Source of the DNA: Ruditapes philippinarum
Lineage: Eukaryota
NCBI RefSeq assembly: GCF_026571515.1
Contig: NW_026860107.1
Location: forward strand, 62,001-126,000
DNA: 64,000 nt
Reading direction: 5' to 3'
Position numbers and translations under genes: made by a program. Below, in pieces: positions 20,835 to 63,304 of the stretch; within the stretch, counting starts at the first letter, position 1; each line of letters opens with the position of its first letter. The notes under the pieces were generated by a model that ran no database searches, was not told where the DNA came from, and saw nothing but the letters and a program-made list of their open reading frames with translations.

Positions 20835-22252
20835 ATGCCGCCGATTAACTTCGTTGTTTCCATATTTCTATTTGTCTTCCTCACGGATATATCATGTTCA
20901 GTAATTACAGGAGATACTGAAATTCTGTCGATGATTAAAGAGCTGAAAGACACAGGTATGCAAATTGAATAAGACTTTACAGTAAAGTGGTTCATCAATA
21001 ATATTTAACATTTTTCTTTCCAAATCTTGCACATATCGGTATGCTTTAATCTAAAATAAAGATTCAAAAATGTTATAAGTTTAAGATATAATAACTTTTA
21101 ATTATGAGATATACGTGATCTGAGACCAATTTGTTTTGCCATCTGCAAGAAAAAGAATGCAATCGAAATAAATTATGAAAAAGAAGATTTAAAGATTAAT
21201 TATATAATATCATTTACATCATATATTTCTAGTGACGTCGCATGAGCATGCAATCCGATCATTGAAAGAGCGTGTAGCAGAACAAGAAAATGTTATCATA
21301 ACACTCAAAGACAAAGACAAGCAACAGCAGGATGCTATAAACTATCTCATGAACGAATTGATATTGAAATCAAAACAAAATGAGCTTGCAAACCCTCCAA
21401 AGGAACAAACACTGCGACTAACCAAAGAGCGTAAAGAAACTTCTGACATATCAGACTCATTACGCGATGAAAGGCAATTGAACATTCGGAAGGATGGTGT
21501 AAGATCATCCAAATCCATGTCTGAAATACTATCAAACATTTCAAACAACGCAGGTGAGAACAATGCTTAGCTAACTTTGATACAGAAAGCTGTCAATTTA
21601 AAGTTAAGAGTCATGAAGATTTACAACATCTTCAATATTATCATATTTCTTTAACTATTATATATTTTTGTTGTTACAGCAAAATAATAAAGTTGGTTTT
21701 AAAAAAGTAAAGTAAAAAAAGCTTTAAACAACGTCACAAAAAAAGAATTACAATTGCTAACTTCTGTCAAAAAATTATAGAAGGTATCACATCATTTACA
21801 CTTCAGCATCAAACGATTTGAGGTCCAGCAGACAATCTATACATCCAAACGTCGCTTTCCAGGCAGTACTTAGTACAGCCACACTCAAAAATGTTGGGCT
21901 GCATCAGAAGATTGTGTATGACTCTGTTAACCTAAATCTTGGCGGCAGCTATCATCAACTTTCAGGCATCTTCATTGCCCCTGTTTCCGGCATATATCTG
22001 TTTTGTACGTCTGTATTATCAGAATATCATGCCTATATTGAAGTTGGAATAATAAAAAATGGTAATCAGCTAGCCGGTGCTTATGCAGAATCTGGTGCGC
22101 AATCGTCCTATGACCAAGGCTCTGCTTCTGTTGCCGTGCAATTAAATGTCGGTGACGAAGTGTGGGTTGAAAATCGTTACCCAGCAGACGCAAAAATACA
22201 TGGTCAAGGTTTGCATACAAGTTTTACTGGTGTTCTTGTTGTGCCAATGTGA
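20835..22252 (+). CDS. Secreted coiled-coil C1q domain-containing protein, copy 1 (295 aa)
   Basis: Exons 20835-20955, 21233-21553 and 21807-22252; GT-AG introns, both phase 1; 888 nt total. Hydrophobic signal peptide MPPINFVVSIFLFVFLTDISC, heptad-rich exon 2, and gC1q motifs VAFQA, YDSVNLNLGG.Y...SGIFIAPVSGIYLF, QLNVGDEVWV, TSFTGVLV. AATAAA at 22253. Confidence 0.88.
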
Positions 22253-23897
22253 AATAAAACAATTTGATGATTAAACTTTGTAACTGGTTCTGCATTACGT
22301 TATATCTTACTAAATTGTACATGATATTAAAATATAACGATCAGTTTACATTTATGGTTTATATTGTGTACACATATTAATATCGTTTACAAATTTAATG
22401 TTCCTAAGGGGGATCATATAAATATCACACTACGCTGAGCGAGATGTGGCAAAAGAAACATATGGCATGTTATTTCAACTGAGACGTGAGGGTCATCTGG
22501 TTGTGTAATCATGTGATATAATGAATGATTAATATAGCAAATGAACCACGTGATGTATAACAAAATGTAGTTTCTTATAACTTAAATAAAACTCAATGAT
22601 AGAAAAAAATCTAAGAATTGTTGAAATGGAAAAAACAAACGCAAATTCATCATATGTTTTAAAAAAGTTTATGAATAATAATGTTTAACTTATCAAAATT
22701 AGGCTTTAAACCAGCTCGAGCTTTACTAGTATAATTATAAAAAAATAGTATGAATTGCATTTTAACCCATATTGACGTATCTAAAATATTATTAAACAAA
22801 TTATGAAAATTGAAAATATCAATTACTTTTTCACATAAATAACTGAGTGTACATGAAAAATTCGTTATGTCCATGCGCATGAGTTTACGAAAGAAGAAAA
22901 TTATTGTTGTACACCTTTAGATTAAAATTTAGACACGTATACCATTCTAAACTACTTTTTATCTTAATTAAGAGAGGTCATCGTAATTTTAATATGACCA
23001 ATACAATTTTTATTTATATTCAGTTCTTCCCTGTAAATTTTACAGGAAGTCCAACTGAATTTCGATTGCCTTCTGCCAAATTAAATGTCAAACTTTGACA
23101 AATAAATAGACCATAATGTTATTTTTTTATGTAAGCAAAACAGCCAATAAAAAAGTAACAAAGAAATTTTTCCAAAACAAATTTGCAAAGTTTACTCGGA
23201 TCCACAGAAAGGCTTTTGTATGCACAATGATAAAAGTATTTCGAAATACTAAAACACAAAAGCCCAAAACAAAAAATCTAGATATAAATCACATTTTTAA
23301 AGGGTGGCAAAACGCCTCCTTTATAGTTAAATAATGAAAGACAATAATCATAATTAACCTTCAGGCGACGTTTTCTTAGTATTGTCGTACAGGCCTGTAC
23401 TAATTATGGCGGTATATTCATATTCTAGTTGTTAATTTGTTAACAGGGAATATTTGTTGAGTTAAACATATCTTATAATCTATAGTATCATAGTTTTGGG
23501 GGCCTTTCTGTTGAAAACGTGTAAAGATATACTTAGCTGGAGTGCAGGTATTTAATATCCGCATACCAAAGCATACTCATTTATTGGCTCATTTTTCCTT
23601 GAGGACACTTATTGTGAAGACAGAGATAGAAATATCATAGTCAGCAGCCACTCATTGGTAACTGTTTTTTGGGGTTTCATATTGAGACAACAGGGAACGT
23701 GATTCTATTGTTGTCTATAATACAAAATAATCAAAACTTTCGGGAATCTGATTTATACTCAAGAGGCTACGTCACCTCGTACAAATCACATAGTCTCGTG
23801 TTTCGATGCTATTTCTAATACTTATTTGCTTTTTTTCTTGCTCTATATTAGTGTGTATGTAATAATTGTCAACAAATTAAGGGAGTAAATATACTAG

Positions 23898-25030
23898 TTT
23901 ATTTTATGCTTTTCAGTGGATTACTGATTTATCCGTGAAAATTATATTTGATAATTTCACAGTGAAAATTATCAAAATATAATTTCACACTTTTCGATGA
24001 CGAAACTACTTTTTTAAGATTTTCCCCATGTGATACCTCAATTTTATTTTTGCTGACAATTCTGACAATGTCAGGCTGTGTAAAGAAAAACAAAGCTGAA
24101 ATTGATAAATAACTTAAATGTCAAAAGTAATAAAAAGAAGAAAACTTACTTCTATTCATTCAAATTCCAATCACCAAATTTCGTCTCTAATTTTTTTTGT
24201 TTGATTTTTACAGTCTGAAAAATACATTCCTTCCCCATGCAAAACTGCTCTTGATGACATTTGGGCATAATAAAGTATCCTACGAGCAATAACTGCCGTA
24301 TGCTTTATGAAAAGTTGAAAAGCAATGACAGCCATCACTCGAAAAATAAGTAAAACAACCCAGCGTTCCTGTCCTGAGCAAGCTTCCAAGTTTTCCATAT
24401 TCCTAGCTCCTTTTTTGAATGTTTTCACATCTTTCAACACTTATTTTTTGTCTGTTACAATCCTCAAATAAGTTTTCTTTCTTTCAAAAAGATGTATGAC
24501 TAACAAATCCAAATTATATCCCTCTGAATCTTACACAATTATTTTCCTCCCATGAAATACACAACTTTAAAAAATGGCTGCCGTTTACATTTTACAAAGC
24601 CAGGTCTATTGTAATTCGCAGTAAGTAACAGAAATATGTATGGATGGTTGGACTTTTTCTCCTACAAGAATTGGTTGTTTTTATTATTAAAACAAGCGAT
24701 CATTCATATTTCTTTAATAAAATGAATAAATATCAACGTAATTTAACATTGATTGGCGGACTTATTTTTCAGCTCAAGACTTCTTGTTTTTAATGAGAAA
24801 TTCCGACTAAATGGGGCTCTCAATGGGGAAAACAGATTTTAATATTAACGTTAAAATTATGGAAATTTCGTTTTTACTTGTTTTTAAGCATAAAATAAAA
24901 AGAAAATTTGTTTGTTTGCTGTGTAAGATGTAATTTTATTTCATCTCGTGAACTTTATAAAACAGTATTTTTAAAGCCCACTCGATGAAATAAAATTTCA
25001 TCTTACACACAAACAAACAAATATCCTCTA
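23898..25030 (-). mobile_element. Copy-1-specific insertion, Crypton-like non-autonomous element with subterminal hairpins
   Basis: Absent from the paralogous sites (~37780, ~55825). Hairpins at 23935-23988 and 24905-25023; minus-strand start TAGAGGATATTTG; no TIR. A decayed coding relic lies at 24171-24440(-). Confidence 0.55.
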
Positions 25031-25888
25031 TATATTTTGTTGGGAATTAATGACCATAATTATATCAGACATATCTGAAGTTTGCCTTTCATATATAATT
25101 AATAAAGAACTGTATTGTAATGGTTGATATTTAAAATTACTCGTGCTATAGAATTAAACATATAATGGAATTTGGGGGAAATGAAAAGTATGACCGCAAT
25201 TTACTGAAATACAGATTTACATTGCAGAGGCTTTATTCAAAATTAATTATGTATTATTAGTAACGTTGTAAACTTATGACATCCGAGACAATCGCAATAT
25301 CAAATCAAATAATATACCACGCATTTCTTATCTTTCATTCCATGATCTGGGTTATAAGGGAAGTCTCACGACTGAATGACAAAAACACAATCCTACGATT
25401 ACTCCCTGTTTAGCATCTAAATTGAAAGACAAGACATCAGGGATTGGTCGGTATTTAATCATCGATATCGTGACAAGAATCTGAACAATATATTTTCACA
25501 AATTAACAATATTATGGTGTTATTTTTATATAATTTTGCTATGCATAGAATAGAGATTTTGACAATAGAGTGTTTAAGATGATAATTAACTATCGCCATA
25601 CGTTTCACCATCAATGCAAGTACGTATATATACTTTACAAACTGTAGATAACAAAAAGTATTCTTAATGCATTACGCACTTATACTGTATGGCATTATAA
25701 TGTCGTCGGTTGCTTTCTATCTTGTATTTATTTTTTCTAAAAAAAGTCTAGTATTATTATATATATGGTCCTTCTCTCATTTTGTGTGGGCGATGATAAG
25801 GACCTTGTACTTAAAGTTTGAAATTAAACACTCAACAACAGAAAAGCTAGTAAATACAAAATAACATTTCAAAGTAAGAAATATCGGT

Positions 25889-26093
25889 ACTAGAGATACG
25901 AATCTTCTGACATACGATGTAGGTGAGAAAAAGTACACATTTAATGTTTAAAGTCAATTTCTGATGCAAAAAAGAGGTTAAAGTCAAATAACATTTCACT
26001 GCCCCAAACAACTTCAAAAGTTTTCTGAATTGGGACGCCGACGCCGTGGTAAGTAGAAAATATCTCCATATACTTAGTATAGTTGAGTAAAAA
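25889..26093 (-). mobile_element. Short degenerate Helentron-type element; paralogous copy at ~56706-56908
   Basis: The minus strand starts TTTTTACTCAACTATACTAAGTATATGGAG..., contains GGCGTCGGCGTC and ends CTCTAGT. Confidence 0.4.
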
Positions 26094-30844: not shown

Positions 30845-30900
30845 CTCTTATCGCTGGCATAACACATATATCTTAATATGGATACAAGAACTTTATATAA
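30845..30900 (+). promoter_or_regulatory. Putative proximal promoter of the C1qDC genes (GATA-type CTTATC plus TATATAA ~55 nt upstream of the ATG)
   Basis: CTCTTATCGCTGGCAT is conserved upstream of all five copies; TATATAA is present in copies 2-5 (TGTATAA in copy 1). The TSS is unknown. Confidence 0.3.
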
Positions 30901-30954
30901 TCGGCAAGTTAGTCTGCACCAGGCCACTGTTAGATAATATTTGACAATTTGAAG

Positions 30955-33900
30955 ATGCCAGTTAACTTCGTTGTTTCTATATTTCTAATTGTGTTCATCG
31001 TGGATGTATCATGCACAGTAAAAACAGATGATACAGAGATTCTGTCGATGATTAAAGAATTGAAAGACACAGGTATGCTATGTGACTTTACAGTTAATTG
31101 ATTAAAAAAATTATTTAACTCAATATTCTTTTTTCCCAAATCTTGCACATATCGATATCCTTTAATCTAAAATAAAGATTCAAAAATGTTATAAGTTTAA
31201 GATATCAACAACATTTATGATATACGTGATCTGAGACCAATTTGTTTTGCCATCAGCAAGAAAGAGAATGCAATCGAAATAAATTATGGAAAAGAAGATT
31301 TTAAGATGTGTTATATAATATCATTTACATCATATATTTTAGTGACGTCGCATGAGCATGCAATCCGATCATTGAAAGAGCGTGTAGCAGAACATGAAAA
31401 TGTTATCATAACACTTAAAGACAAAGACAAGCAACAACAGGACGCTATTAACTATCTCATGAACGAATTGCTATTTAAATCAATACAAAATGAGCTTGCA
31501 AACCCTTCAAAGGAACAAACACTGCGACAAACCAAAGAGCATAAAGAAATTTCTGACATATCAGACACATTACGCGATGAAAGTCAACTGAACATTCGGA
31601 AAGATGGTATAAGATCATCCAAATCCAAGTCTGAAATACTCTCAAACATAGCACACAACGCAGGTGAGAACAATGCACAGTTAACTTTGATACAGAAAGA
31701 TGTCAATTTAAAGTTAAGAGGCATGAAGATTTACAACATCTTCAATATTATCATATTTCTTCAACTTTTATATATATTGTTGTTAAGGCAAAATAATAAA
31801 GTTGGTTATAAAAAATTTAAGTAAACAAATGCTTTAAACAACGTCACAAAAAATACAAATTATTTCCACTTTAAAGGGGCTACACTGAGGTCTGACAGGT
31901 AATTTGGTGTCCAAAAAAAATGTAAACAAATTTCCTCACAAATCACAATATTATGACTAAAATAACAATAACTTACACTTTAACCAACCCTCTAACAACA
32001 ATTATGCTAGAAAATGCATTTTCACATTAGCTTTTGATGCAAAAATGAAAGTTGGTTTTTCCCAGACATGTACAGAAGTTACCCACAATTCATCGGGTAT
32101 AACTAAAATACGCAACGGACATTTTTTGGAACAACAGAGTAAACGGGGGTAAAAAAGTCTATTGATTTTTTCTCAACACTCTAACCTATCATGTTTATAT
32201 AACGAAGAAAAAACTGTATAAAGATAATCAGGTAGCAATTTCGATGTCTTTGAAAAAATCAAACGCCAGCGAAGCGGACATTTTTAGACAAAACGGAAAG
32301 ATATTATATACATGTACAATAATTTTCATTGACTTTTCAGTTTTCAATTTGAATATTCTAAGGCAAACATAATGCATCGGTGATATTTATACTATAACGA
32401 GCACAGTGTAATCACACTAATAAAAAGTATTTAACGCTATCTATAACGTATTTAAATCAAATACAGTTAATGACATGTCTCATTTGATTTGATTTGATTG
32501 TTTGTTTTTGGGATGGAGTGGGGGTTTCGTCACACAAAACTGTGTAGGTCATTTTGGCGACTCTTCAGTTTTACTGGTGGAGTAAGAACTCAGATGCCCC
32601 CTTTGCAAAATTGTTTCTGGCACAAACGGGCATCTGTGTATGTAATGAGTGACGTTTCGTAGGCTATCTTGATAGGATCGTACATACATGTTCCACACAC
32701 AATTACATCATGTTCATAACATAGGCAAAATTAAATGCACGTTCCCTGTTGTAACAATATGAAAACCCATAAAAAACCTATGAACCAGCTTCTGAATATG
32801 GCATTTCTATCGTTATTCCACAAAAAGCACCCCCCCCCCCCCAAAAAAAAAAAAAAGAATGAGAACATCAATGACCATGCTCTGGAGTGTTGGGAACTAT
32901 TACCTGCACTCCAGTTACGCAATGTGCATGTATATGAATGACACGTTTTCAACAGAAAAGTCTTCAAACTATGATACAATAAATGTTGACGATTCTATTA
33001 GAAACTTGTTTAGAATTTAATGATTTTTCGGTGAAAACGATATCGTTTACTTGTACTACAGATAAGATCAAAGTGCTGAAGGCACTGAAGAAAAAACCGG
33101 ATAAACTAACACATTTTCACTCCAGTTTCACAGGTAATTAATTTTATATGTCGCGGTTTACATCTTAATATCAGGTAACCTTTTGCTTTTTGTGACTTTT
33201 GTTTTTGAATATAATCTATACGAGTAAAAATAAAACCCTCTTTTTATTGGCAAATAATTTAATAAGTAGCATCCCCGATTTCTCTTTCATAAATTGGCTT
33301 TAGCAAATTCTTTTCTATTCAAATATTAAGAACATTCTGTCAGTGACGTGTCTTCTACTTGAAATCTTCCTGGTGTGTATTTTTCAGGTAACAGGAAGAA
33401 AAATGACAATCTGTTTCGTATCTTTTCGGTAACAGGAAGAAAATGACAGTCTGTTTTCATTTGATCATGACTTGTGAAAAATTATGTTTTCTGAACCAAT
33501 TTATCCTGCCGATAAAGATTTTGCAAGCAATCTGGTGGTTTATGTTCTAGTGCTTACCCTTAGTATTTAATTCCAAAGAACATTTCCTAGAAGACCTTTA
33601 ACGTTTGATTACGGTATAATCACTATAACCGAAATACTTAGGCCTGTTACTGTGAAAATTTTTCGTTCATGTGTTTTAAAATACTTCAGTAGCTCTATAA
33701 ATTTTTCAAAAACGATATCCAGTATTTCCGAAACAATTTACAAAGGCTTTTAATACACAATCTTATAAATCTTAAAGTATTACGAGAACCACCCACCTAA
33801 TCTCCAGAACATACATACGAAAAACAAGATAAATCAAAAAGGCTGCAAGCTCTGTGGTATTTTTCTGATCTTTGCAATCTAAATCGCACTGTATAAACTG

Positions 33901-36900
33901 TATTATTTTCCTGTATAAGTTTATTTTTATGTACTTATAATTCTTCTTGCTTGGTACCAGAGTTTGATACATATGGAATTTTGCATGACTAGAGTTGCAT
34001 CAAAAATCATTTATGTTCATTTTCATGACAGCCCACACTTTATCCTTGCATATCGTGGCTGTTTCCATAAAACAAAGAAACTTTATAAAAAATAATTGCA
34101 TTGAATTGGATTTGAACCCCAGACACACTAAACGAGCGCGTTACCCTTTGCACCACGGAGAAGATATACGAACAATGCCTGAATAAAATCAAGTGATACT
34201 AAATTTAGATTTTCCATTGCATTTCGGGCTAATTTCGAGGTTTTTTGTTTCAAGATAAACCTGTTGTTTAACATTTGATGTTAATAATTTAACAAAAACT
34301 CTTCTCGCCAAAACAGTCCGACATGTATATATTCCACTACTCGCCAGTCAGATTTATTTATGAAATACGCTCTCGACATCGCTTAAAATAGCATTTTCAT
34401 CCACATGACCAAGCAACACAGGACCACGGCTAAAGTATCAATGAAAAATTTAATTTTTCAGGCTTTCAAGTGGTAAATATAAAAGACTAAAAAAAAAAGG
34501 AAAAAAAGGAAGAAAGAAGAGACAAAAGTAGAGAAAAGTAAAGGTTTTAGTGCTATAAAGCAAGAAAAGCAGGGTTCTCTTCCTAACTTTTTATGCAATG
34601 AAATGCATCCGATCAATATTTAGCCGTTGCAGTTTTTGAAACAAGTCACTCGTGTTTTTCAAAATCGTCGGGAAATGAACCTGACCTTTTTTATCAAAAT
34701 ATTTACAAAACTATTAACAATGGGAGTATGCCATGATAAACAGGCTATAAGGAGTAAAAACAATGGTTAAGATATGCATTGCCCTTTCCCAAGTTTGTAT
34801 ACCGTCTAGGAGTTGGAAGTAATTATAGAATATAGTTTCAGCAATGGTTGTTGTATGAGGTGAGGTTAATAATTAATATTCTTACTGAATTCTTAAAGTT
34901 ACTTTTACTTACCTGCCCTTCACAATTGTCTTGCAAGTATCATGATTTTGTTTGTTTCGTTAAATTTGAAAGAAAGTTAGGGTTTAAAAAAGAACAACTA
35001 TATAATCAGTTTTTAAGTTTATTTCACTAGTCCCGACAATAACCTGCTGTGGAAGCTTGACTGTGTCGGGGGGCTGCCGTCCTGTGAACGTTGGCGTCGC
35101 CTTGATTGTCTTTATTCCAGTTTTCCTTTTTTACTCTTATAACGCTCTCAATTTCTTTTTCCACCGAGAAGCTTCAAATATATTGTTAACATTAAAGCAC
35201 AGCTCAATTGACCCATCACTGGTACGGATGCCTTCCAATAAGAAAGAAATTTATCAGGATATCTGCTAAATCAAATAATGATAATAATAATATTAATAGA
35301 GCCAGATTGTAACTCTTTTCCGACCTTCTTGATAATGTTTACCATGTGCATGAAACAGTTTCAATTACCTATAGTTTTGAATGTCTAGATCAAAAACGTA
35401 GTAATCATCTCATCAACAAAGTTTACATCCAATGCGGATAAATATGCAAATATGTATGTAAAATGATAAAATATTTAAATTTCAGATCTATCTAGCAAAG
35501 AAGATCGATTTTTTTTTTCTTATAGAATTTTTTATTTTATGCACTAGACATACATAAGAATTATTAACTAATAAAGTTGAAGCCTAAATGTCCTATAATG
35601 AGACTGGATTCATTCTCTATTTAGCCTGTGCTTTCAGTGCTTTGATCAGAGTTAAAGAGAAATATCTGGAATAACATTCTGTGTGTGCGTGTGATTTTTT
35701 ATGCTTACAATACTCAAGTTCATGTTCGTTGTATAAAAGGTATTATTTTTTTTTAAGTTTTTTTTTTCCTGAACGGGTGTCAGATAAACCAAAGTGACCT
35801 TTGAAATAGGACCCATTACACTGATTGACAAAATTTTCTAAGCCTAGATATCATGATATTTTAACCATTACAAAGTTAATACATACTATTTAACAATTAC
35901 ACGAAAGCTCTCAAATAAACATAGAATATTGGTAAAATTTGTGTTATACTATGTCAGTTTTCAACTCCGTACGTTTAGCTAAATTCATCATTGTAATGGA
36001 GAAAAAAACATGATTACAACAATGTAATGCTTTAAATATATTGAAATTGCTTTTGAAAGATTTTTCTCACAAGAACATATGTGAACAACAAGAAATTTAA
36101 CAAACAAACCCATAATTTGCTTTAAAATTTATGGATTGTTGGTATATTCCACTTTCGCACTTTCGTTGCTGCCGATACACAAAAAATTCTCCGTTTCGCT
36201 TTTTAGTCATCCCGATAATCATCACGTGACCGTTGTTTTTATTCAGATTTGCAAGCTGAAAGGTGTTTAAACGCTTTTCCCACAAAATTGGAGAAAATAT
36301 GTATTTCAAACGACTTGCCAATCCAAAGAACACATATCAATGTATCACTGATTCTGTTTGAATGTCCCTAACACGCAGGTAACAAAAAATTATCGGTTCG
36401 TGAAATTTTACTTTTTTTTGTGACATTCGGCCGTACCTCAGTGGAGTACCTTTAACTTCAGACGATTTGAGGCCCAGCAGACAATCTATACATCCAAACA
36501 TCGCTTTTCAGGCAGTACTTAGTGTAACCACACTCACAAATGTTGGGCTGCATCAGAAGATTGTGTATGACTCTGTTAACCTAAATCTTGGCGGCGGCTA
36601 TCATCACCTTTCAGGCATCTTCATTGCCCCTGTTTCTGGCATATATATGTTTTGTACATCTGTATTATCAGAATATCATGCCTATATTGAAGTTGGAATA
36701 ATAAAAAATGGTAATCAGCTAGCCGGTGCTTATGCAAAATCTGGTGGGCAATCTACCTATGACCAGGGGGCTGCTTCTGTTGCCATGCAATTAAATATCG
36801 GTGACGAAGTTTGGGTTGAAAATCGTTGGCCAGCAGACGCACAAATACGTGGTCAAGGTTTGCATACAAGTTTTACTGGTGTTCTTGTTGTGCCAATGTG

Positions 36901-36901
36901 A
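30955..36901 (+). CDS. Secreted coiled-coil C1q domain-containing protein, copy 2 (292 aa); intron 2 carries a 4.6 kb transposon
   Basis: Exons 30955-31072, 31343-31663 and 36462-36901 (879 nt, GT-AG, phase 1/1, no stops). Confidence 0.85.
32480..32670 (-). mobile_element. Degenerate 3' half of the tRNA-SINE family seen at 58862
   Basis: Aligns to the reverse complement of 58975-59136 (e.g. TTTACTGGTGGAG, TAGGTCAT, GGCAC..ACGGGCA). Confidence 0.7.
34087..34163 (-). ncRNA. tRNA-like Pol III cassette inside the Kolobok-type element
   Basis: Minus strand: A-box-like TGGTGCAAAGGGT, B box GGTTCAAATCC, then a T6 run. Homologous to 1700-1786 but with a deletion in the anticodon arm. Confidence 0.5.
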
Positions 36902-38146: not shown

Positions 38147-41100
38147 CTTCTCTTTCTGCTTCCTGTCACGTTCCTCTATACGTTTTTGTTTCCTCTCATT
38201 CTTCAGTTCTTCTTCTTTCTTCTTCTTAGCTTCCCTTTCTTCCTTCTCTTTCAGTCTTTTATTTTTCCTCTCAATTCATCATCGACTTATTTCTGCTTTC
38301 TTTTTCTTTCTAATTCATTTTTTCTCTTCTCTGATACTTCCTTCTTCTTAGCGGCTAGGTCCTCTTTTTCCTACATAAATAGGAATTGAAAATTAGTATA
38401 ACTTGTATATTGGGATATTTTGTTACAAAACATGTTTGCTATCGTTCTTTACTGTTAAGATACGAATATTCACAAAAAAAATGCATACTTAAGCATAGAA
38501 ATGATTACAAAAATCTAGATAATTCAACTTTTCTGGAAAATATATCGCAATAAGATAAAATTTCGTGATATGTACCTTCAATTACTCATAAATTAAAAAT
38601 GGGTTACGATATATGTTTTGAAATGTTTTTAAATTATCGCAATGACAGTTATGTATACGACATGCAGTCGTATTACTACCATAGCGTTTATAGTTAATCG
38701 AGAAACAACGCAGGCAAACCTTTAATTGATTCAACATTTCTTGGCCACTTATGAGCCTTCCCTCTGCTACCACTCTAGACTTTTTTGCTTGTGTGTTCTG
38801 TGGTTTAGTTGGCGGAGGTAGAAGAACATTTTCCAGAGACTCTGATATCATGCCTCTCCTTACCAATGGATTGGTAAGGAACGACCCACAGGTGCTACAT
38901 GTCCTTACCTCATCTACTTCTAAAAACAATGCAAATATTGTTAAAGTATTAAAAAATTATATATCAAATATTTACTGCTTTCTTGAAGTGTGTTTAGATA
39001 TTACGAAATATAAAAAGAATTACTTTATCCGATAGTTTCTTTTTTTTTGTTTATTTGTTTTTGTTGTTTTATTTTTTGTTTGTTTGGGGTTTTTTTTTTT
39101 GGCAGAAAAACTGCCTTACCGGTACTAATTAAATTTACAAACAAATGCATCGTACTCGGCAAGTTTTACCTTCAATAAATGTTGGCTTCACTATTTGCGT
39201 TTGATCAATGATAGAGGGGTTAAATGGACAAATCCCTGTTTTCGTGAAGCCGTCAGCTATAGTTGCAGGAGCGATTTTGTCCATTGCGTGCTTTAATAAA
39301 ACCGGGAATTTTGCCCTTCCTACGCTTACTGCAGTTTTTAGATATCCAAGACTTGACAGTGTTTTGGTGTAAGCGTCCTTCAAAGGTGATATACTCTGAA
39401 AGCATTTAACACATTCATCTAAAATGTTTGAAATTTAAAAGTTTCACATGTGTGCAGTTACAATAAACTTATCAATACTAAATGTATTATAAACGATAAT
39501 TTAGTTTGATGATTAGATTGTTTAGAACGCCCGGCACTCTTTTCTTAGCGAGATGTACATATTTTTGTTCGTACTGAATAGCAATTTAAGTAAAATATGT
39601 TACTAAAACATCAAATCATATTTCCCAAAGCAAATAGTGGTTACATAAACTTGTATATTACATGATTTTGTAAGCTGACTAATTATTACAAACTTACGTT
39701 CACGTCTAAAGGCTGAAGAATATGCGTGGAATGACCAGGGAGACCAAGAAGAACAATATTTTCAGCTATCGCCTTTTCAACTACTGGAATGCTAATATGA
39801 GAGTCGTGGTTATCCATGATAAGTAGGACGGGTCTTGTTCTGCCACAGTTTGGAACAAACACGCTGAAAAACCATTTTGTGAAAAGTTCACGGTCCATGT
39901 AGCCGTTTTCGCTGTGGCCAAAATACCATGACGACGGTACACTATCTGTGTAATTCTGGTGAGGTAATGAACCCTGTAATAGAAAGTACACGATAGAAAA
40001 CGTATCACTGTATATCAGTATAGAGTATAGTATACATGATAATTTTATACAGTTATATTGTACATGTAAATAGAATTATACTTTCTTCAAAGCGTTATCG
40101 CTAGCAAATGCATACTTAATAAAATACCTTGTAAATTATAAGAGGTGGTAGAAAGTGTCCATCTGCTGAGACACAATGATGTGCTGTCACGTGATCTGCT
40201 GAAGACGTCTTTCTTCTAAACAAATGCCCTCCACGAGGCCCGATTACTTTCGACCTAGGTGCCTCTTTTCCTGTTAATCCAGTTTCGTCACAATTGAAGA
40301 TCTAATAATAAAACATAACAGTTACTTAAATTATGTTTACACGGTATGCTTATTATAACGATCCGTTGTTGAATATTCTGTGTTACCTGTTTTTTCATAT
40401 TTCATATGAACATATTTTATGTATCAAATGCCATAATATATAAAAAGAGTAATATATGTAAAAGAGATAATTAGTTCGTTATAGAACGATTATTCTATAT
40501 AAGTGCCAACATAAACAATGCTTACTCTTTCTGGTTTGTTTTTCAAGTTGTATTTATCAAGAACAGACTTGAGAAGAGGAAAAAATTTGTCAAGCATCCT
40601 TTTAGATGACATGGATACTCGGGCATTGTCCATGTTTTCTGCCTTTCTTTGAGCCAAGTCTTGATGCCGCCCGAAAAACTTTGTGAACCAATCATCAGAG
40701 GGTCCTTTTTGTAGATTAAACAGTGACGTACGGCCTGAAAAATTGCAACAAATAACAGTACTTTAAACAGAACTATATTTTCATTGTACTTGAATATTGA
40801 TGTAAGAATTCTTTAAAATTCGTTCAAAATATGATTATGATAGACACATTATAATTGGTCGAGTAGATTCTAAAATTAAACCCGCAAATTAATCATGGAA
40901 CATTTTATATTACAAAACACACCTGATTGTATAACTATCTCTTGTATGTAACACCTGATCATAGCCCTGAAAAGTGGAAAGCCTTGATTCGCCATGTATA
41001 AGAGATACTGGACAAGGGAGTCCTCTTCGTGTTGTAGTTGCTGTCTTTCTGGTCCAGGTCTGTTTCCCGAGTACTTGTGTCTCACTTTGTCAGAGAGAGT

Positions 41101-41208
41101 TGATTTTGGTACTCCGAATATTCTAGCAGCCGCTGTAATTTTCATTTTTCTTTGACGCACAGCTGACAGAGCTGACGCTAGTTGATCTTCGGTGTATGTC
41201 TTTGGCAT
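38147..41208 (-). pseudogene. Multi-exon pogo/Fot-like transposase (psq-type HTH + CENP-B/Tc5-type HTH + DDE_1, DD35D); open for 484 codons, last exon damaged
   Basis: Exons 41208-40923, 40734-40526, 40301-40128, 39973-39698, 39395-39170, 38919-38720 and 38370-38147, all GT-AG and phase-consistent. Motifs AAARIFGVPKSTL, GPSDDWFTKFFGRH, IFNCDETG, LLIMDNHDSH, HSTHILQPLD, GFTKTGICPFNP. The K/E/R-rich exon 7 has TAA at 38289-38287 plus a frameshift. Confidence 0.88.
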
Positions 41209-42039
41209 TATAATACCTAAAACGTTTAACCAGTAATGTACAAGTAAAATGGTTTCCTGCGGGGAACATTTTTAATGATATAAAGATATTTCATTTAACT
41301 ATGTTCAACATTGTTTTGGGGGAGGGGAGTAATAAACGTTTGTGTCAGGAATATAGTTGACAATAATCGATCAATATAGAAGAAGGTCTTTGGAAATTGG
41401 TGACCGTTGATGACAGGAGAAGTTAGAATATAAAACTATTATTTCTTTTTAAGAAAATGATTTAATATGCCTACCATTTTATAAATAATTCCAAGCAAAA
41501 AAAAAATTAAATAAATAAAGTAAACACACAAGTTTACGCAGAAAATATCTCCATTTATGGCAGATGCCAGTACGAATATTTTAATTTTGTAGAGTTTCAG
41601 TTTAAACAATTTATTGTTTGTAAAATTTGAGATACATATATTAAAGAAACATTGATAATTTTCAAACACATCATTCAAGTTTTTCCACCTTAAACGGTAA
41701 AATAATTATATAACGTAATAGTTTTTTGTTCTTAATTAGGTGTAATTGTGGCAAATTCCCTAGAGGTAATTCCGTAACGTACCGACAAACGGTATTTAGC
41801 CAGTTTAGTTTTCGAAAAGGTCAATAAACCAATCGTGTAGGGTTTACAGATCACATGCTCCTCTATGTACCTAAAACAGGTCACGTGCTCCTCCATGCCT
41901 CAAAAGTGAAACGCGTACCAATACCCTGCGGTCTCCAGACCGCAGGGAGTAATAACAATTTTTATTTTGGAAATAAGATAAATTTTAAAGTTTGTAAAAC
42001 AAATTTTATCGCGAACAACTTGTATAAAAATAAAAAAGG

Positions 42040-42783: not shown

Positions 42784-42912
42784 CATCACTATTTCTTACT
42801 TTACTTTGACTTTCGTGGACCAACATTCCCATTAGTTGCACTTTTAAAATCACTATTTCTAACTTTATTTTGGCTTTCGTGGACCAACATTCCCATAAGT
42901 TGCACTTTTAAA
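42784..42912. repeat. ~65 bp tandem duplication shared with 57061-57190
   Basis: Two copies of ATCACTATTTCT...CGTGGACCAACATTCCCAT..GTTGCACTTTTAAAA; only one copy in the spacer after gene 1 (~26263-26350). Confidence 0.85.
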
Positions 42913-47414: not shown

Positions 47415-48992
47415 ATGCCAGTTAACTTCGTTGTTTCTATATTTCTAATTGTGTTCCTCGTGGGTATATCATGTACAGAAATAACAGGAGATACGGAGAT
47501 TCTGTCGATGATTAAAGAATTGAAAGACACAGGTATGCTATGTGACTTTACAGTTAATTGATAAAAAAAAATATTTAAGTTAATACTCTTTCTTCCCAAA
47601 TCTTGCACTTATCTGTATGCTTTAAATTAACTCTAAAATAAAGATTCAAAAATGTTATACGTTCAAGATATTAACAACTTTTATGAGATACGTGATCTGA
47701 GACCAATTTGTTTTGCCATCAGCAAGAAAGAGAATGCAATCGAAATAAATTATGAAAAAGAAGATTTAAAGATGTGTTATATGATATCATTTACATCATA
47801 TATTTCTAGTGACGTCGCATGAGCATGCAATTCAATCATTGAAAGAGCGTGTAGCAGAACAAGAAAATGTTATCATAACACTCAAAGACAAAGACAAGCA
47901 ACAGCAGGATGCTATAAACTATCTCATGAACGAATTGATATTTAAATCAAAACAGAATGAGATTGCAAATTCCAAGGAGCAATCACTGCGACAAACCAAA
48001 AAACGAAGCGATAATTCTGAAAAGGTAGACTCGTTGAGAGATGAGAGTCAACTGAACATTCGGAAGGACGGTGAAAGAATATACAAATCCAAGTCTGATA
48101 TACTCTCAAACATTTCAGACAACGCAGGTAAGAACAATGCACAGTAAAGAATGTTGTAAATTAAAATTATGAGTCATAAAGAGTTGCCATATTATCGTTT
48201 ACAACATTTCTAATATAATCATATTTTGTCAAACATACAGCATATATGATTGTTTTATCTTGTATGCAAAAATATTCAAGTTCATGTAATTTTCTTTAAA
48301 TATTTAAGTTGACAAGGTACTTTAAAAAACATCAAATGTTAAATTGTTTACTGACACCAAAACAATACGTCGAACACTAAGATATCTTATACTGCGATTG
48401 AACGTGTTTACAGTATTTGTAGAATAAATTTATCAAACTTGTTCTGAAATTCTATCCTTTATAATTTGCCTACATTGTAAAATAATCACAGATAAAAACA
48501 GGTATTATTATTTGGCTCTTTCAATTTTTCATTCATTTAATGTTAATTTCAGATGTATTGAGGTCCAGCAGACAATCTATACATCCAAACGTCGCTTTCC
48601 AGGCAATACTTAGTGCAACTACAATCCCAAACATTGGACTGCATCAGAAAATTGTGTATGACTCTGTTCACCTAAATCTTGGCGGCGGCTATCATCACCT
48701 TTCGGGCATCTTTATTGCCCCCGTATCCGGCATATATCTTTTTTGTACGTCTATATTAGCAGAACATTATGCCGATATCGATGTAGGAATAGTGAAAAAT
48801 GGTATTCAGCTAGCCGGTGCTTATGCAGTATCTGCTGGGCAATCGTCCTATGACCAAGGCTCTGCTTCTGTTGCCGTGCAATTAAATGTCGGTGACGAAG
48901 TGTGGGTTGGAAATCTTTGGCCTGCAAACACACAAATTCACGGTCGTGGTATGCATACAAGTTTTAGTGGAGCTCTTATAGTGCCAATGTAA
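47415..48992 (+). CDS. Secreted coiled-coil C1q domain-containing protein, copy 3 (291 aa)
   Basis: Exons 47415-47532, 47810-48127 and 48553-48992 (876 nt, GT-AG, phase 1/1, no stops). Confidence 0.9.
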
Positions 48993-52597: not shown

Positions 52598-53176
52598 TTA
52601 AGTTAGTTGTTTCAAAAATTGTGAAAGAAAATGAAAGTACAAAATGAAAGATACTGCATACAATAAATTATGCTGATATGCATACTCGAGTAGGGAAATG
52701 CATAGACGTACACCAAACTTGGAATTTAAGAGTAACATTCTATTTTTCTTAATTTTTAATACAAAACATTTTTTTTTTGATAACTTTAAGTGTGCGATTA
52801 AGCCTGAAGACCAGATAGTTATAACTAGTCTAATTGTTTCGAAAAAGATTATTAAAAACATTAACTGAAGATATACTATACAATTAAGCATGGTTATCCA
52901 TCAGAATGTGATTTTATAAATTTTTGCAAGTGTAAACCATACTGTTTGCAGTTTCAAGTTGACATCATATTAATTTGATTCAATATTGTTGTAACTGCTG
53001 TTTTTACACTACATTTAATTTTATGACACAGTTTAATTATACCTTGATCACGAAATAAGTGCATAACTCTTATCGCTGGCATAACACGCGTATCTTAATA
53101 TAGATACAAGACCCTTATATAAACGGCAACTTAGTCTGCACAAGGCCACTGTAAAATAATATTTGACAATTTGAAG

Positions 53177-54750
53177 ATGCCGGTTAACTTCTTTGTTTCT
53201 ATATTTTTATTTGTGTTCCTCGTGGATATATCATGTACAGTTATAACAGGAGATACTGAGATTCTGTCGATAATAAAAGAGCTTAAAGACACAGGTATGG
53301 TTTGTGACTTTACAGATAAGTGATTCAAAAAATGATTTAAATCAATATTGTTTCCTTCCAAATCTTGCACATATCGGTATGCTTTAATCAAAAATTAAGA
53401 TTCAAAAATGTTATAAGAAGATATATCAACTTTTAATTATGAGATACGTGATTTGAGAACAAATTGTTTTGCCATCAGCAAGAAAGAGAATGCAATCTAA
53501 AAAAATATGAAAAAGAAGATTTAAAGATATGTTGTATGATATCATTAACATCATATATTTCCAGTGAAGTCGCATGAGCATGCAATCCGATCATTGAAAG
53601 AGCGTGAAGCAGAACAAGAAAATGTTATCACAATACTCAAAGACAAAGACAAGCAACAACAGGATGCTATAAACTATCTCATGAACAAGTTGATATTTAA
53701 ATCAAAACAAAATGAGCTTGCAAACCCTACAAAGAAACAAACACTGCGACAAACCACAGAGAGTAACGATAATTCTGATAAATCAGACTCATTAAGCGAT
53801 GAAAGGCAACTGAACATTCGGAAGGATGGTATAAGATCATCCAAATCCAAGTCTGAAATACTCTCAAACATTTCAAACAAGTCAGGTGAGAACAGTGCAC
53901 AGTTAACTTCGAAGCAGAAAGATGTCAATTTCAAACAGCATATATTATATCGTATCGGCAAACATATTTAAGATCATCTAAGTTGCTTTAAAAGAATTAA
54001 GTTGGCAAAATGCTTCAAACAACATCAAAGTATGTTAAACTGTTTACTGGCACCAAAACAATACGTCAACACTTAAATAACTTATATTGCGATTGAACAT
54101 GTTATCAGTATTTGTAGAATAAATTTATCAGACTTGTTCTTAAATTCTATCTTTTAAAATTTGCCTACATTTAAAAAATCACAGATAAAAACATGTGTTG
54201 TTATTTGTCCTTTTTCAATTTTCATGCATTTCACACATAAAATGATTAAAATTGCTAATTTCTGTCAAAATAATTATATAAGGTATCACATTTTTTACAT
54301 TTTATTTCCGACGATTTTAGGTCCAGCAGACAATCTATACATTCATACGTCGCTTTCCAGGCAATACTTACTGCAGCTACAATCCCAAATATTGGACTGC
54401 ATCAGAAAATTGTGTATGACTCTGTTAACCTAAATCTTGGTGGCGGCTATCATCACTTTTCAGGCATCTTCATTGCCCCTGTATCTGGCATATATCTTTT
54501 TTGTACGTCTATATTAGCAGAAGCTCATAAGAATATCGATGTAGGGATAATAAAAAATGGTAATCAGCTTGCTGGTGCTTATGGAGAATCAGGTGATGAT
54601 ACGAACTATGACCAAGGGGCTGCTTCTGTTGCCGTGCAATTAAATGTCGGTGACGAAGTGTGGGTTGAAAATCGTTGGCCAGCAGACGCAAAAATACATG
54701 GTCAAGGTTTGCATACAAGTTTTACTGGGGTTCTTGTTGTGCCAATGTGA
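53177..54750 (+). pseudogene. C1q domain-containing gene copy 4; exons open but exon-3 splice acceptor mutated (AG>CG)
   Basis: Exons 53177-53294, 53565-53885 and homologous exon 3 54311-54750. TTCCG|AC replaces TTCAG|AC at 54309-54310, and the nearest AGs are out of phase. Confidence 0.7.
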
Positions 54751-55503
54751 AATGAAACAATTAGATGATTAAATTTTGTTACTATTTCTGAATTACGTTA
54801 TATCTTACTAAATTGTACATGATTTTAATATCTAACGATTGAATGAGCTCCTCCCTTTACATTAATGGTTTATATTGTGTACACAGATTAATATGGTTTA
54901 CAAATTTAATGTTCCATTGGCAGATCATATAAATATCTCACCACGCTGAGCGAGATATGGCAAAAGGAACATAAGCATGTTATTTCAACTGAGACGTGAG
55001 GGTCATTTGGTTGTGTAATCATGTGATATTAAGAAAGATTAATATAGCAAATTAACCACGTGATGTATAACAGAATGTAGTTTCTTATAACTTAATTAAA
55101 ACTCAATGATAGAAAAAAATCTAAGAATTGTTGAAATGAAAAAAAACGCAAATATAACATGTTTTAAAAAAGTTTGTTTTAAAAAAGTTTATGAATAATA
55201 ATGTTTAACTTATCAAAATTAGGCTTAATCGATTTGTTAACAGAGAATATTTGTTGCATTAAACATATCTTATAATCTATTGCATCATAGTTGTTGACCT
55301 TTCTGTTGAAAAAGTGTCAGAGTTAAATCGTATACATATACATAACTGGAGTGCAGGTATTAGTTATCCTCACTCCAAAGCATACCCATTGATTGGCTCA
55401 TTTTTCGTTGAGGTCAATTATTGTGAAGGCAGAGATAGAAATATCATATTCATGTTACTTTTTCTGGGGTTCCATATTAAGACAACAGGGAACGTGTTTA
55501 TAT

Positions 55504-55637
55504 AATACTGTTAGTTTTGTATTTAATCATGTCTGTATCACTCACTGTTTATGTATGTATATTATATATATGTTGTAAATGTTTATGGGCCGGAGGCCTA
55601 AAGACTTATCAATAAAATATCTTGAAATCTTGAAATC
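55504..55637 (+). mobile_element. 5'-truncated non-LTR retrotransposon 3' tail (CR1/L2-like)
   Basis: Absent at the paralogous sites (~50405, ~37592). Ends in AATAAA followed by a (CTTGAAAT)2 tail; flanked by a TATAT direct repeat. Confidence 0.6.
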
Positions 55638-58600: not shown

Positions 58601-58861
58601 ACATAAAACGAAAAAAAAACAAATGCCAAAGCGATCCTTTATATTGAGATAGAAGCTTTCATGACCAACATATTACTGTTGATATAAATATATAGAAACA
58701 TACCTGACATATGAATTACCTTGGTCGGAATCTTAACTGCCCCATGTTCAAAAGGAAAATATCGAGGACTTAGTGCAAAAAGGGTTGTACCTCATATGAC
58801 ATATAGGTGGAGTAACAACCAAGTCGATATGCAAATAGATTCTTGTATTACATATTGTATT

Positions 58862-59136
58862 GGGGCATCCGTGGCCGAGTGGTTAAGGTCGTTGACTTCA
58901 AACCACTTGCCCCTCACCGCTGTGGGTTCGAATCCCGACAGGGACTTTGGATTCTTTCATGTGAGGAAGCTATCCAGCTAGCTTACGGAACGTCGTTGGT
59001 TCTACTCAGGTGCCCGTTCGTGCCTGAAATAATGCACGGAAGGGCACCTGAGGTCTTCCTCCACCAGTAAAGCTGGAACGTCGCGATATGACCTATACTG
59101 TGTCGATGTGACGTAAAACCCAAAACAAACAAACAA
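58862..59136 (+). mobile_element. Full-length tRNA-derived SINE
   Basis: A box TGGCCGAGTGG, B box GGTTCGAATCC, GC-rich body and (CAAA)n tail. TSD ACATATTGTAT at 58850-58860 and 59137-59147; empty site at ~44463-44475. Confidence 0.93.
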
Positions 59137-61893
59137 ACATATTGTATGGCATGATGAAATGTGGAAAAAATATAATTTTATAATAGAGATCCTGAAAAAA
59201 GGCATTGTACAAATTAGAAGAAAAAAAACTCTTCAATACAAGTATCTTTTTCAAGAAAACATGGATCTCTTACTAATCATATCAAGACAAATTAAAATAT
59301 CATTCTTAGATTGCTTTAACAAACGTATCAGATTGAAATTGTAATAATTGTATTTGACCAAATATATAATAGAAACAAATGATAACATCATTTCGTAAAG
59401 ACAGTTACGACAACAGCAAACATGTCTGTCAAATTTTGCTTGCTGTGTTATTTTTATGTTCTGTTAACCATATATATTGTTTTTTTTATATAAAGAGTTC
59501 TTCTTTGTTTTGTGCAATGTTTGAGACGTTAAAATAGCAAAGATATGACCATTATAATGGTTGAGTTTTAGAAATTTCCTTGTTATGTCTCATTTATAGA
59601 CACAACTAAACAGTATTTGTTTTAATAAATAAAACATGAAATGATTATATTATGTTATGACATTTTACAAACATTCAACATTGAGTGACAGACAATACAA
59701 AAAAGTCTCATGCTATTATAGCATATTTGATAATATGCAAAAGCTAAAATGTTCTGAGAATTCAACTTTAACGTAAATTTGTTTTGCTTTGAAAGAATAT
59801 GTTAGTTGTTTATACACTAAAAGAATGTCTGTGAATTGTACCGAAAAGACCAAAATAAGGTTTCTCAAGACGAAGCCTGAAAGTTTACGAGAACTCAATT
59901 TCAAAATGAAATTAAGGAAAAACTTATTATAAGAAATATTTGACTTCAAATATAAGATCATTTACAAGTTTTACCTTCCTGAGCAAGTTGAATGCAATAT
60001 CGAGCAACTAATAATATCAGTGTTAGCAGTAAACTTAACTTTGTTTAAATCTTATTTCAAATGTAAAGCTGACACCCTAATACTAAATTATTGTGATAGC
60101 TTCGCAACAGATAAAGCCAGCTGCGACTTTCTTTCAGTCTCAAAAGATATCGTAAATTCAGCTTTATATCAAGTGTAGAAATTGTCCTACATTATTATAT
60201 GATTAGAGGAGAATTAAATTTTCAAAACCCTTGTATGTTGAATTATTTGTAACGCCCGATCTTTAACAATCTGTACGCATATAGCTTTTTATAACCATTT
60301 GCAACTGTTATAAGACATAAGGTCATCCTCGATTATGATGCCTAAACACAAGCTTTAAATTTTATCACTATTTAAATCTAAATGTCTGACTCTGCTAGAC
60401 ACCGCAAATTAAATGTGCAGAAAAATAATTACTTACTTTCAATAACTTTTCTTTCTTTTATTTGAAATTGTGCAGCATCGCGTGTTTAGGATTTTTTATT
60501 TTTGCACTCTGATTGATGATGATTTGCTTCATTTTGAGGGATTCCATTCATTTAGGAACGGAAGTGAAATGTTGGCTGATTCTTTTTCACTTAAAACGAG
60601 ATAGATGTTTAAATGGAAATATTAATAAAGATAAACGTATAGCCTTATGAAAATAACATGAGCTGCAAATGTCTGAGTTTATTATTAAGTATCTGAGTAT
60701 TATTAAGATTCTTTTTACCATAAAGTTATAACTGTTTATAATTTGTATTATTTCAAGTTAAATCCAAGACAAAGTATCCAAAAGATTTGAAGTACATATG
60801 TTATTGTTTTTGTGTTGTTGTTTTTTTTTATCTGAAATGCCTTTTGCATAATCAAGAGAATATTGGCATTGAAAACACACTGTTGCAATAAAATAAGGCG
60901 GGTTTGAAAAAACGAATTTTTAAAGGTGTGCAAACTATAAATACATTAACTAAATGAAGAAAGTTACTGCTTACAATATGCTGATATGCCGCATGCGTAC
61001 TTAAGTATATAAATACAAAGACGTACACCAAACTTGTAATTTAGAGGTAAAATCGTTTATTTTTAATACTAAAAATTTCTTGATTATTTTAAGTAAGCGA
61101 ATAAGTCTGAAAGGCAGATAATTATAACTAGTCTGATTGTTTCAAAAATATGATTTAAAACATCAACTGAAGTTATATTGTACAATAAAGCATGATTATC
61201 CATCAGAATGCAATTATATCGTGGAATGTCGAAACGATTTCAGATATTATCGAGATATATTTGAGATATATTTTAGATATTATAAAAACTTGAATAGAAA
61301 ATAACCGTAATATTTAGAAAGACCAAAACAGACCGAAACATTGTTGAAGCACAAATAATTATTATGGTTTAAATAAATTATTGAAAAAAGAATCTTTTCC
61401 CAACGCAACACAATATCTTGAGCAGCACAGACAAAATTAAACCACAATTCCGGCAGAGAATCGATATTTTTAAGTTTGGACTGAGAATTTAAGCCATATT
61501 GGAATCAAAGTCCATATAACAGTACGATATAAACTGTTTTATCTTAGTAGGAGTATTCTTGCTTATTGAATAAAGGGGAAAATGGTATGATCTCCTATGT
61601 TGTCAACAGTCATATACGCCATTTATTCGGATGCAGATATTTATAAATTTTTGCGAGTGTAAACCATACTGTTTGCACTTTCAAGTTGACATCATATTAA
61701 TTTGATTCAATATGGTACCAACTAATGTTTAACACTACATTTAATTTTATGACACAGTTTAATATCACGACACAAGTGCATGACTCTTATCGCTGGCATA
61801 ACACATATATCTTAATATGGATACAATAACTTTATATAATCGGCAGTTTAGTCTGCACAAGGCCACTGTTAGATAATATTTAACAATTTGAAG

Positions 61894-63304
61894 ATGCCAG
61901 TTAGCTTCGTTGTTTCTATATTTCTAATTGCGTTCATCGTGGATATATCATGCACAGTAATAACAGACGATACGGAGATTCTGTCGATGATTAAAGAATT
62001 GAAAGACACAGGTATGCTATGTGACTTTACAGTTGATTGATTAAAAAAATATTTAAGTCAATATTCTTTCTTCCCAAATCTTGCACTGATCGGTATGCTT
62101 TAAATTAAATCTAAAATAAAGATTCAAAAATGTTATACGTTAAAGATATTAACAACTTTTATGATATACAGGATCTGAGACCAATTTAATTTGCCATCAG
62201 CAAGAAAGAGGATGCAATCGAAATAAATTATGAAAAATAAAGATTTAAAGATGTGTTATATAATATCATTTACATCATTTATTTCTAGTGAAGTCACATG
62301 AGCATGCTATCCGGTCACTAAAAAAGCGTGAAGCAGAACAAGATAATATTATCATAAGACTCAAAGACAAAGACAAGCAACAACAGGATGCTATTAACTA
62401 TCTCATGAACGAATTGATATTTAAATCAAAACAAAATGAGCTTGTAAACCCTCCAAAGGAACAAACACTGCGACAAACCAAAGAGCGTGAAGAAACTTCT
62501 GACATATCAGACTCATTACGCGATGAGAGTCAACTGAACATTCGGATTGACGGAGTAAGATCATACAAATCCAAGTCTGAAATAAACATTTCAAACAACG
62601 CAGGTGAGAACAATACACAGTAAACTTTGATACAGAAAGCTGTCAATTTAAAGTTAAGAGGCATGAAGATTTACAACATCTTCAATATTATCATATTTCT
62701 TCAACTTTTATATATTATGTTGTTCAGGCAAAATAATAAAGTTGGGTATAAAAAAGTTAAGTAAACAAATGCTTTAAACAACGTCACAAAAAATACAATT
62801 GCTCACTTCTGTCAAAATAATTAAGGAAGGCATCAAATTATTTCCACTTTAACTTCAGACGATTTGAGGCCCAGCAGACAATCTATACACCCAAACATCG
62901 CTTTTCAGGCAGTACTTAGTGTAACCACACTCACAAATGTTGGGCTGCATCAGAAGATTGTGTATGACTCTGTTAACCTAAATCTTGGCGGCGGCTATCA
63001 TCACCTTTCAGGCATCTTCATTGCCCCTGTATCTGGCATATATCTGTTTTGTACGTCTGTATTAGCAGAATCTCATGCCGATATCGATGTAGGAATAATA
63101 AAAAATGGTAATCAGCTAGCCGGTGCTTATGCAGGTGCAGATTCTGGTGGGAAATCGTACTATGACCAAGGCTCTGCTTCTGTTGCCGTGCAATTAAATG
63201 CCGATGACGAAGTGTGGGTTGAAAATCGTTGGCCAGCAGGCGCAAAAGTACATGGTCGAGGTTTGCATACAAGTTTTACTGGAGTTCTTGTTGTGCCAAT
63301 GTAA
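61894..63304 (+). CDS. Secreted coiled-coil C1q domain-containing protein, copy 5 (292 aa)
   Basis: Exons 61894-62011, 62289-62603 and 62859-63304 (879 nt, GT-AG, phase 1/1, no stops). Confidence 0.9.

Follow-up and report, generated by a model that had tools for sequence, protein, structure and literature searches.

Tandem clusters of C1q domain-containing (C1qDC) genes of sC1q-like type 2 have been described in the oyster Crassostrea virginica by Gerdol et al. 2019 (PMC6835236), and the available passages of that study report a few positively selected sites per cluster on a purifying background, with their three-dimensional placement beyond reach. The definition of type 2 and the family sizes in clams are given in the available passages of PMC8905726, and those of PMC8678459 and PMC8878817 contribute nothing further. 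Here, we analysed a 64,000-nucleotide stretch of the clam Ruditapes philippinarum (contig NW_026860107.1, positions 62,001 to 126,000, hereafter the window), which carries a tandem array of five C1qDC genes (g1–g5, 20835–63304, all on the + strand); a sixth close copy, g6, lies on another contig. The array is like the oyster clusters in protein architecture, tandem arrangement, exon layout, purifying selection over most of the head and a small number of hypervariable sites (4–11 in the oyster, 6–12 in the clam). However, in the clam these sites are located in four loop zones and the genes show intragenic mosaicism, whereas in the main text of the oyster study the term "gene conversion" is absent and unequal crossing-over is named only as a source of duplicates. 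Positive selection confined to a few sites of tandem C1qDC clusters has thus been published before, for the oyster, and the new elements are the mapping to four loops across clam clusters and the clear intragenic mosaicism.

Other known systems share parts of this organisation. The vertebrate gC1q trimers (adiponectin, collagen X, otolin-1, C1ql, caprin-2 and cerebellin) have the same fold and an Asp before strand F, but in the clam proteins a coiled coil replaces the collagen, and the Ca2+ partner acid is variable or absent. The "cerebellin-1-like" protein of Mercenaria mercenaria (XP_045174208, P0010) has the same signal peptide, coiled coil, linker and head layout, with a head 56% identical and the YDQ motif retained. 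Germline exchange among clustered paralogs and new combinations of variable recognition segments are common to the array and to the major histocompatibility complex (MHC), plant resistance (R) genes and self-incompatibility genes, as treated in the available passages of PMC3924837; unlike the MHC and R-gene families described there, the array has neither donor pseudogenes nor a peak of silent divergence at the loops. The first-pass annotation of the window had called the loops "CDR-like", after the complementarity-determining regions of immunoglobulins, with which they share a conserved beta-sandwich whose variable loops all lie on one face. This holds as an analogy only: the copies are germline paralogs, their pattern is general to clam clusters, and the ratio of nonsynonymous to synonymous substitution (omega) is near 1 in the loops. 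Neither segments nor recombination signals or donor cassettes were observed, and there was no sign of a somatic mechanism, the head being a single germline exon, no broken donor copy being present among the close matches, and g1-type loops recurring in two other studies.

On balance, we favour a reading in which the array consists of five mosaic sC1q-like type 2 genes that vary in four loops and encode secreted coiled-coil trimers with these loops at the tip, selection and exchange together diversifying the recognition surfaces. Under this reading, point mutations would accumulate in the loops under relaxed selection that is likely positive in episodes; germline exchange, by gene conversion or unequal crossing-over, would reshuffle the loop variants among copies; and each copy would likely gain a different recognition surface.

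Gene structure and predicted fold

Six-frame translation located the five genes, together with the patch sequences listed for them in the first-pass annotation, all at the expected places on the + strand. Successive gene starts from g1 to g5 are 10.1, 16.5, 5.8 and 8.7 kb apart, and a self-comparison of the window showed that the repeat unit of the array extends into the flanks. All five are already in the databases as uncharacterised R. philippinarum loci, and the translations of the three-exon models rebuilt from the window are identical to the database proteins: g1 (20835–22252; exons 20835–20955, 21233–21553 and 21807–22252; 295 aa; P0001, LOC132758928), g2 (30955–36901; exons 30955–31072, 31343–31663 and 36462–36901; 292 aa; P0002, LOC132758934; intron 2 of 4798 nt), g3, which has the most diverged head (47415–48992; exons 47415–47532, 47810–48127 and 48553–48992; 291 aa; P0006, LOC132758931), g4 (53177–54750; exons 53177–53294, 53565–53885 and 54311–54750; 292 aa; P0004, LOC132758929) and g5 (61894–63304; exons 61894–62011, 62289–62603 and 62859–63304; 292 aa; P0005, LOC132758932). 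The frames are open in all six genes. Genome searches with the head and with exon 2 identified six close copies, g1–g5 plus g6, which is located terminally on contig C2937, and the presence of more array copies before g1 or beyond g5 was rejected on the same searches.

The splice sites are GT-AG throughout, except for the exon-3 acceptor of g4 (54308–54310, + strand), which reads CCG rather than CAG in the assembly and reflects either a mutation or an assembly error; the database protein is spliced there regardless, and in another sample one g4-like RNA contig, with 4 mismatches across 186 nt of exon 2, has its junction at this position. In g1, the shared acceptor is lost (AG to AA; 21801–21815) and an in-frame AG 6 nt upstream is used, adding two residues; this junction was present in the RNA contigs of three of the four runs examined. 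Transcripts of the family are spliced, both introns being skipped in RNA contigs of all four runs, which come from four studies and three of which are only guessed to be RNA. These contigs provide no ranking of expression and do not show transcription of each of the five genes. Several paralog junction types were found within single runs, and, among the 40 alignment rows of 178 that were inspected, contigs from two other studies combined the g1 junction with a g1-type sequence in loops 1 and 2.

The copies share a common layout of signal peptide, coiled coil, linker and gC1q head, encoded by three exons with the head in one. The N-terminus is hydrophobic over about 22 residues, as judged by eye, and is followed at residues ~33–90 by a coiled coil of about eight heptads with the a/d pattern ILVHILVQILDQILL; no Gly-X-Y run is present in the protein sequences. 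The proteins are predicted to be secreted and to form coiled-coil trimers. An RxxR motif (RSSR or RPSR) stands just before the head in all six proteins (g1, ~21818–21829) and may be a cleavage site at which a proprotein convertase could set the trimeric head free. The Pfam C1q profile (PF00386) was passed by all five exon-3 open reading frames (65.6–75 bits, cut-off 23.7). An AlphaFold2 model of the g1 head, built from a 27-sequence alignment, had a predicted local distance difference test (pLDDT) score of 92.5 and strands in gC1q jelly-roll order, and Foldseek aligned it with solved gC1q domains at template modelling (TM) scores of 0.75–0.87 and 21–31% identity. In the strand order of this model, the four variable patches lie between strands A and A' (zone 1; g1 residues 169–181, 21869–21907), C and D (zone 2; 218–225, 22016–22039), E and F (zone 3; 241–250, 22085–22114) and G and H (zone 4; 270–285, 22172–22219), all on the + strand. 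The family, the fold and the identity of the loops proposed by the first-pass annotation were therefore borne out.

In the known topology of the gC1q trimer, the A-A', C-D, E-F and G-H loops meet at the tip. According to the available passages of PMC12749725, the strand 5-6 loop of C1ql1 binds the uppermost Ca2+ ions, and a main part of its ligand cleft is made by the strand 7-8 loop; by our own mapping, these loops correspond to E-F and G-H. From the topology and the C1ql1 passages, rather than from coordinates, it is likely that the four loops form a ligand-binding tip, and a lectin or pattern-recognition role with ligand specificities differing between copies may be proposed. The YDQ motif, which the first-pass annotation had matched to the adiponectin-type Ca2+ site, is invariant, and its Asp (D250, in zone 3) is found in all six proteins, matching the adiponectin and collagen X DQ in the alignment. 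However, this type of site uses two acids eight residues apart (E417/D425 in otolin-1; available passages of PMC8211825), and position 242, eight residues upstream of D250, is E, K, V, E, D and E in g1–g6, acidic in four of six and among the fast-changing sites; in the HMMER register, the partner is Ala. The match thus holds for D250 but not invariably for its partner, and a fully conserved Ca2+ site was rejected; the site appears half conserved and may differ between copies.

Loop bias and mosaic ancestry of the heads

Amino-acid variation in the head is concentrated in the four patches described by the first-pass annotation, in which 27 of 35 codons are variable against 19 of 98 outside, and the clustering exceeded chance in a permutation test in which four windows were free to choose their best places (p=0.0012). 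The bias was weaker with strict loops taken from the predicted secondary structure (21/42 variable codons, 25/91 elsewhere; p=0.018), and it was also found with a broader loop zone that takes in the strand ends and was defined once the alignment had been inspected (27/47, against 19/86 in the rest of the head; p=6e-5). Omega was 1.16–1.40 in the loop zone and 0.27–0.30 elsewhere in the head (difference p<=1e-8). With these 19 variable codons and an omega of about 0.3, the framework is constrained, not "almost invariant" as had been claimed. Much of the variation in patch 4 comes from g3, at 14–17 of 72 nt from every other copy, the remaining copies differing by 1–6. The 6-nt insertion noted in the E-F loop of g5 (near 63131–63136) is present, and it is an imperfect tandem duplication (5 of 6 bases matching). 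Outside the head, the linker (34/67 codons variable) and the signal peptide (10/21) are nearly as variable as the loops. Flanks and introns diverge by 0.13–0.24 among copies.

The copies are recombinant mosaics, and recombination is the best-supported process in the array. The pairwise homoplasy index (PHI) test was significant for exon 3 (p=0.0002), for exons 1–2 (p=0.002–0.003) and for non-coding sites alone (p=0.0003), a signal that selection on the protein cannot explain. In the head, 10 of 60 triplet tests passed Bonferroni correction, as did 7 of the 30 restricted to window genes, and the longest-identical-run test identified a sole exon-3 tract, between g1 and g3 (corrected p=0.035). 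The nearest neighbours accordingly change from loop to loop: g2 equals g5 and g3 is near g4 in loop 1; g1 equals g2 and g4 equals g6 in loop 2; and g1 is near g3 in loop 3. A mosaic case is the head of g2 (36500–36780, + strand), in which loop 1 is that of g5 (0/72 nt differ), loop 2 is that of g1 (0/36 nt), and the sequence from residue 248 onwards is closer to g4 than to g5 (triplet g2/g1/g5, corrected p=0.034; g2/g4/g5, corrected p=0.0012). As a result of this mosaicism, loop variants occur in new combinations. The mosaics likely arose by past germline gene conversion or unequal crossing-over. A literature search yielded no report of gene conversion or recombination in C1q or C1qDC families; subscription journals lay mostly outside its coverage, so absence from print is not established.

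The loop bias is general to clam C1qDC clusters and not special to this array. We used 90 of the 150 listed matches to the head (the top 30 and 60 others, picked mostly for shared contigs), which gave 14 clusters of at least three members at 70% identity. The loop zone was enriched for change (p<0.05) in 9 of the 13 clusters other than the array. Site models applied to the six other clusters with 4–7 members were significant in two, and remained so on mosaic trees (p=0.0007–0.025). These two clusters showed stronger loop-focused positive selection than the array itself (L058, L059, L061, L062 and L073–L075 on C4848 and C470; L020, L022, L025, L029 and L056 on C5587 and C10044) and are therefore better suited to the question of selection on the loops. 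PHI signal was detected in only three of eight clusters, namely the array and the two selection-positive clusters, and among the seven tested for both signals the three with selection signal were the three with PHI signal. This overlap fits an inflation of the site test by recombination, an inflation of PHI by selection, or the action of both processes in the same young clusters.

Selection and competing explanations

The first-pass annotation had attributed the variable loops to diversifying selection and proposed site models as a check. These were run as M1a/M2a and M8a/M8 with purpose-written code (M0-scaled branch lengths, naive empirical Bayes and a beta distribution in five classes). On a single tree, and with codon frequencies from the whole gene, the M1a/M2a likelihood-ratio statistic was 7.0 for five genes and 8.1 for six; with those of the head alone, it was 10.6 and 13.1, respectively (p 0.001–0.03 overall), with an omega2 of about 3 on 17–20% of sites. 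All 12 sites with a posterior above 0.9 fell in the loop zone, and residues 1–162, which include the variable linker, showed no signal of omega>1 (statistic 0.3–0.4). Recombination between the copies weakens such single-tree tests. On mosaic trees, in which blocks had separate topologies, M8a/M8 gave p=0.018, 0.041 and 0.16, and M1a/M2a values ranged from 0.03 to 0.61, depending on the gene set, the codon frequencies and the breakpoints; for the five window genes, p=0.03 was obtained in one of two codon-frequency settings. Omega above 1 is therefore borderline, at about 6–12 loop sites, of which 221, 223, 242, 245, 246 and 248 recur in most fits. Homologue searches recovered only the six clam proteins, one Mercenaria protein and one Littorina protein, and hence no close orthologues of use in comparing species. 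Positive selection on the loops is suggestive, not established: the diversifying selection first proposed was significant on a single tree and weak once recombination was allowed.

Several results weigh against the reading that we favour. The full M1a/M2a series on mosaic trees was p=0.11, 0.22 and 0.61, and 0.03, 0.06 and 0.28, and neutral mosaics simulated from the fitted blocks reached the observed statistic in 1/85 runs for five genes and in 3/66 and 3/48 for six genes (~0.02–0.08). The loop zone as a whole was not significantly above an omega of 1 (p=0.15–0.52) and, besides having been drawn on an inspected alignment, is embedded in a head in which strict apical loops did not differ significantly from non-apical ones (5/19 variable; p=0.10). 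Silent divergence is equal within and outside the zone (proportion of synonymous differences, pS, 0.141 and 0.145), by which a peak of silent divergence at the loops was rejected. PHI on synonymous-only codons (18–22 sites) was not significant (p=0.17, 0.59). Exchange spans the whole repeat unit, the longest identical tracts lying upstream (g2/g3, ~300 nt) and in introns; there is therefore no sign that exchange aims at the loops, and conversion targeted at them was rejected. Finally, an immune function is known for only part of the bivalve C1qDC proteins, according to the available passages of PMC6835236.

Much of this evidence bears on a simpler account, in which constraint is merely relaxed, the loops drift near-neutrally, ordinary exchange makes the mosaics, the site signal is a by-product of recombination, and the copies persist for reasons of dosage or are close to redundant. 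We consider this doubtful, though with evidence in its favour: the ratio of nonsynonymous to synonymous differences (pN/pS) in the zone is 0.94–1.26 with intervals including 1, the linker is nearly as variable, neutral mosaics exceeded the nominal 5% cut-off in 7/66, 7/48 and 5/85 runs, and the selection-signal clusters (three of seven) coincide with the PHI-signal clusters. However, the linker control lacks a class with omega>1, the five-gene test reached p=0.03 on mosaic trees in one frequency setting while only 1/85 simulations attained the observed value, two other clam clusters retain the signal when segmented, and the oyster clusters show the same selection pattern (available passages of PMC6835236). 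That last source also describes most of the tested bivalve C1qDC proteins as lectin-like, and a structural function would not predict a class with omega>1 in exposed loops, so that a role in shell, mucus or extrapallial fluid, with loop variation tuning another interaction or none, seems distinctly unlikely, even though no source gives these genes a functional name and C1qDC proteins in shell formation and extrapallial fluid are named in reference titles (titles alone). It is highly improbable that the mosaics are an assembly artefact of mixed paralog or haplotype reads: an unmerged overlap of two versions of the locus and one non-canonical acceptor could be taken as hints of this, but the copies are ~13–24% apart in non-coding DNA, RNA contigs from two further studies pair the g1 junction with g1-type loops 1 and 2 in the rows inspected, and none of the six frames is interrupted.

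Two extensions of the favoured reading, diversification of the tip loops by selection and exchange, were also considered. Co-expressed paralogs could heterotrimerise through a shared coiled coil and so provide a combinatorial repertoire, as proposed in the first-pass annotation. We regard this as unlikely: 16 of 17 a/d core positions are identical in the six proteins, the coiled-coil pN/pS is 0.23–0.26, and several paralog junction types co-occur in single RNA runs, but young paralogs that form homotrimers would be expected to keep their coiled coil just as well, contigs from bulk runs say nothing about expression within a single cell, and the word "heterotrimer" is absent from the main text of PMC6835236. 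It is similarly improbable, in our estimation, that C1qDC arrays behave as MHC- or R-gene-like loci, in which selection would diverge the tip loops, conversion would reassort blocks, old haplotypes would carry different loop sets, one fast-changing residue would switch the axial Ca2+ site between copies, and heterotrimers would multiply the repertoire. The example of such a haplotype would be g6, which stands at the place of g5 with the C-D loop of g4, a new A-A' loop and flanks ~10% diverged.

The overlapping contig, mobile elements and implications

Contig C2937 matches, in the same order, the final repeat unit of the array and ~25 kb of its downstream flank. A test piece from the downstream flank had exactly two full-length occurrences in the genome, and a piece from upstream of the array had one. 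The overlapping contig ends (G000:C2937:227001-252942 and G000:C8594:119000-150773) represent two versions of one locus, which differ by 9.7% substitutions over 11.9 kb of non-repeated flank. We read g6 as the gene at the place of g5 on another haplotype; the divergence is high for alleles and indicates either an old haplotype or a segmental copy. It is the sole further version of the locus available for comparison.

Intron 2 of g2 carries a DNA transposon-like insertion of 4577 nt (31875–36451, strand unassigned), which is flanked by TTAA at either end and has 17-nt terminal inverted repeats, starting with AG and ending with CT. Only 10 nt separate it from exon 3, whose acceptor is undamaged. 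Of 387 candidate matches to this element, 40 were scored, and all 40 were 98–100% identical; the element is young, and TTAA together with such ends is reminiscent of Kolobok elements. Between g2 and g3, on the minus strand (38582–41271), are pogo/Tigger-like transposase pieces with HTH_psq (PF05225) and DDE_1 (PF03184) domains in separate open reading frames, which are probably exons. A tandem repeat with a 146–158-nt unit in 4–5 copies (17162–17890) and an inverted pair of ~480 nt, 97% identical (6675–7156 and 8211–8694), are of types typical of mobile elements.

In other respects, the array is unremarkable within a family that numbers hundreds of genes in each bivalve genome. Published single-tree site tests in the C1qDC family may be inflated by recombination. 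The six natural proteins, with a common scaffold and reshuffled loops, constitute a ready set for loop-by-loop ligand mapping. Whether the selected sites of bivalve C1qDC proteins map to the binding surface was left open by Gerdol et al. 2019, and the array, together with nine other clam clusters, points to the four loops at the tip.

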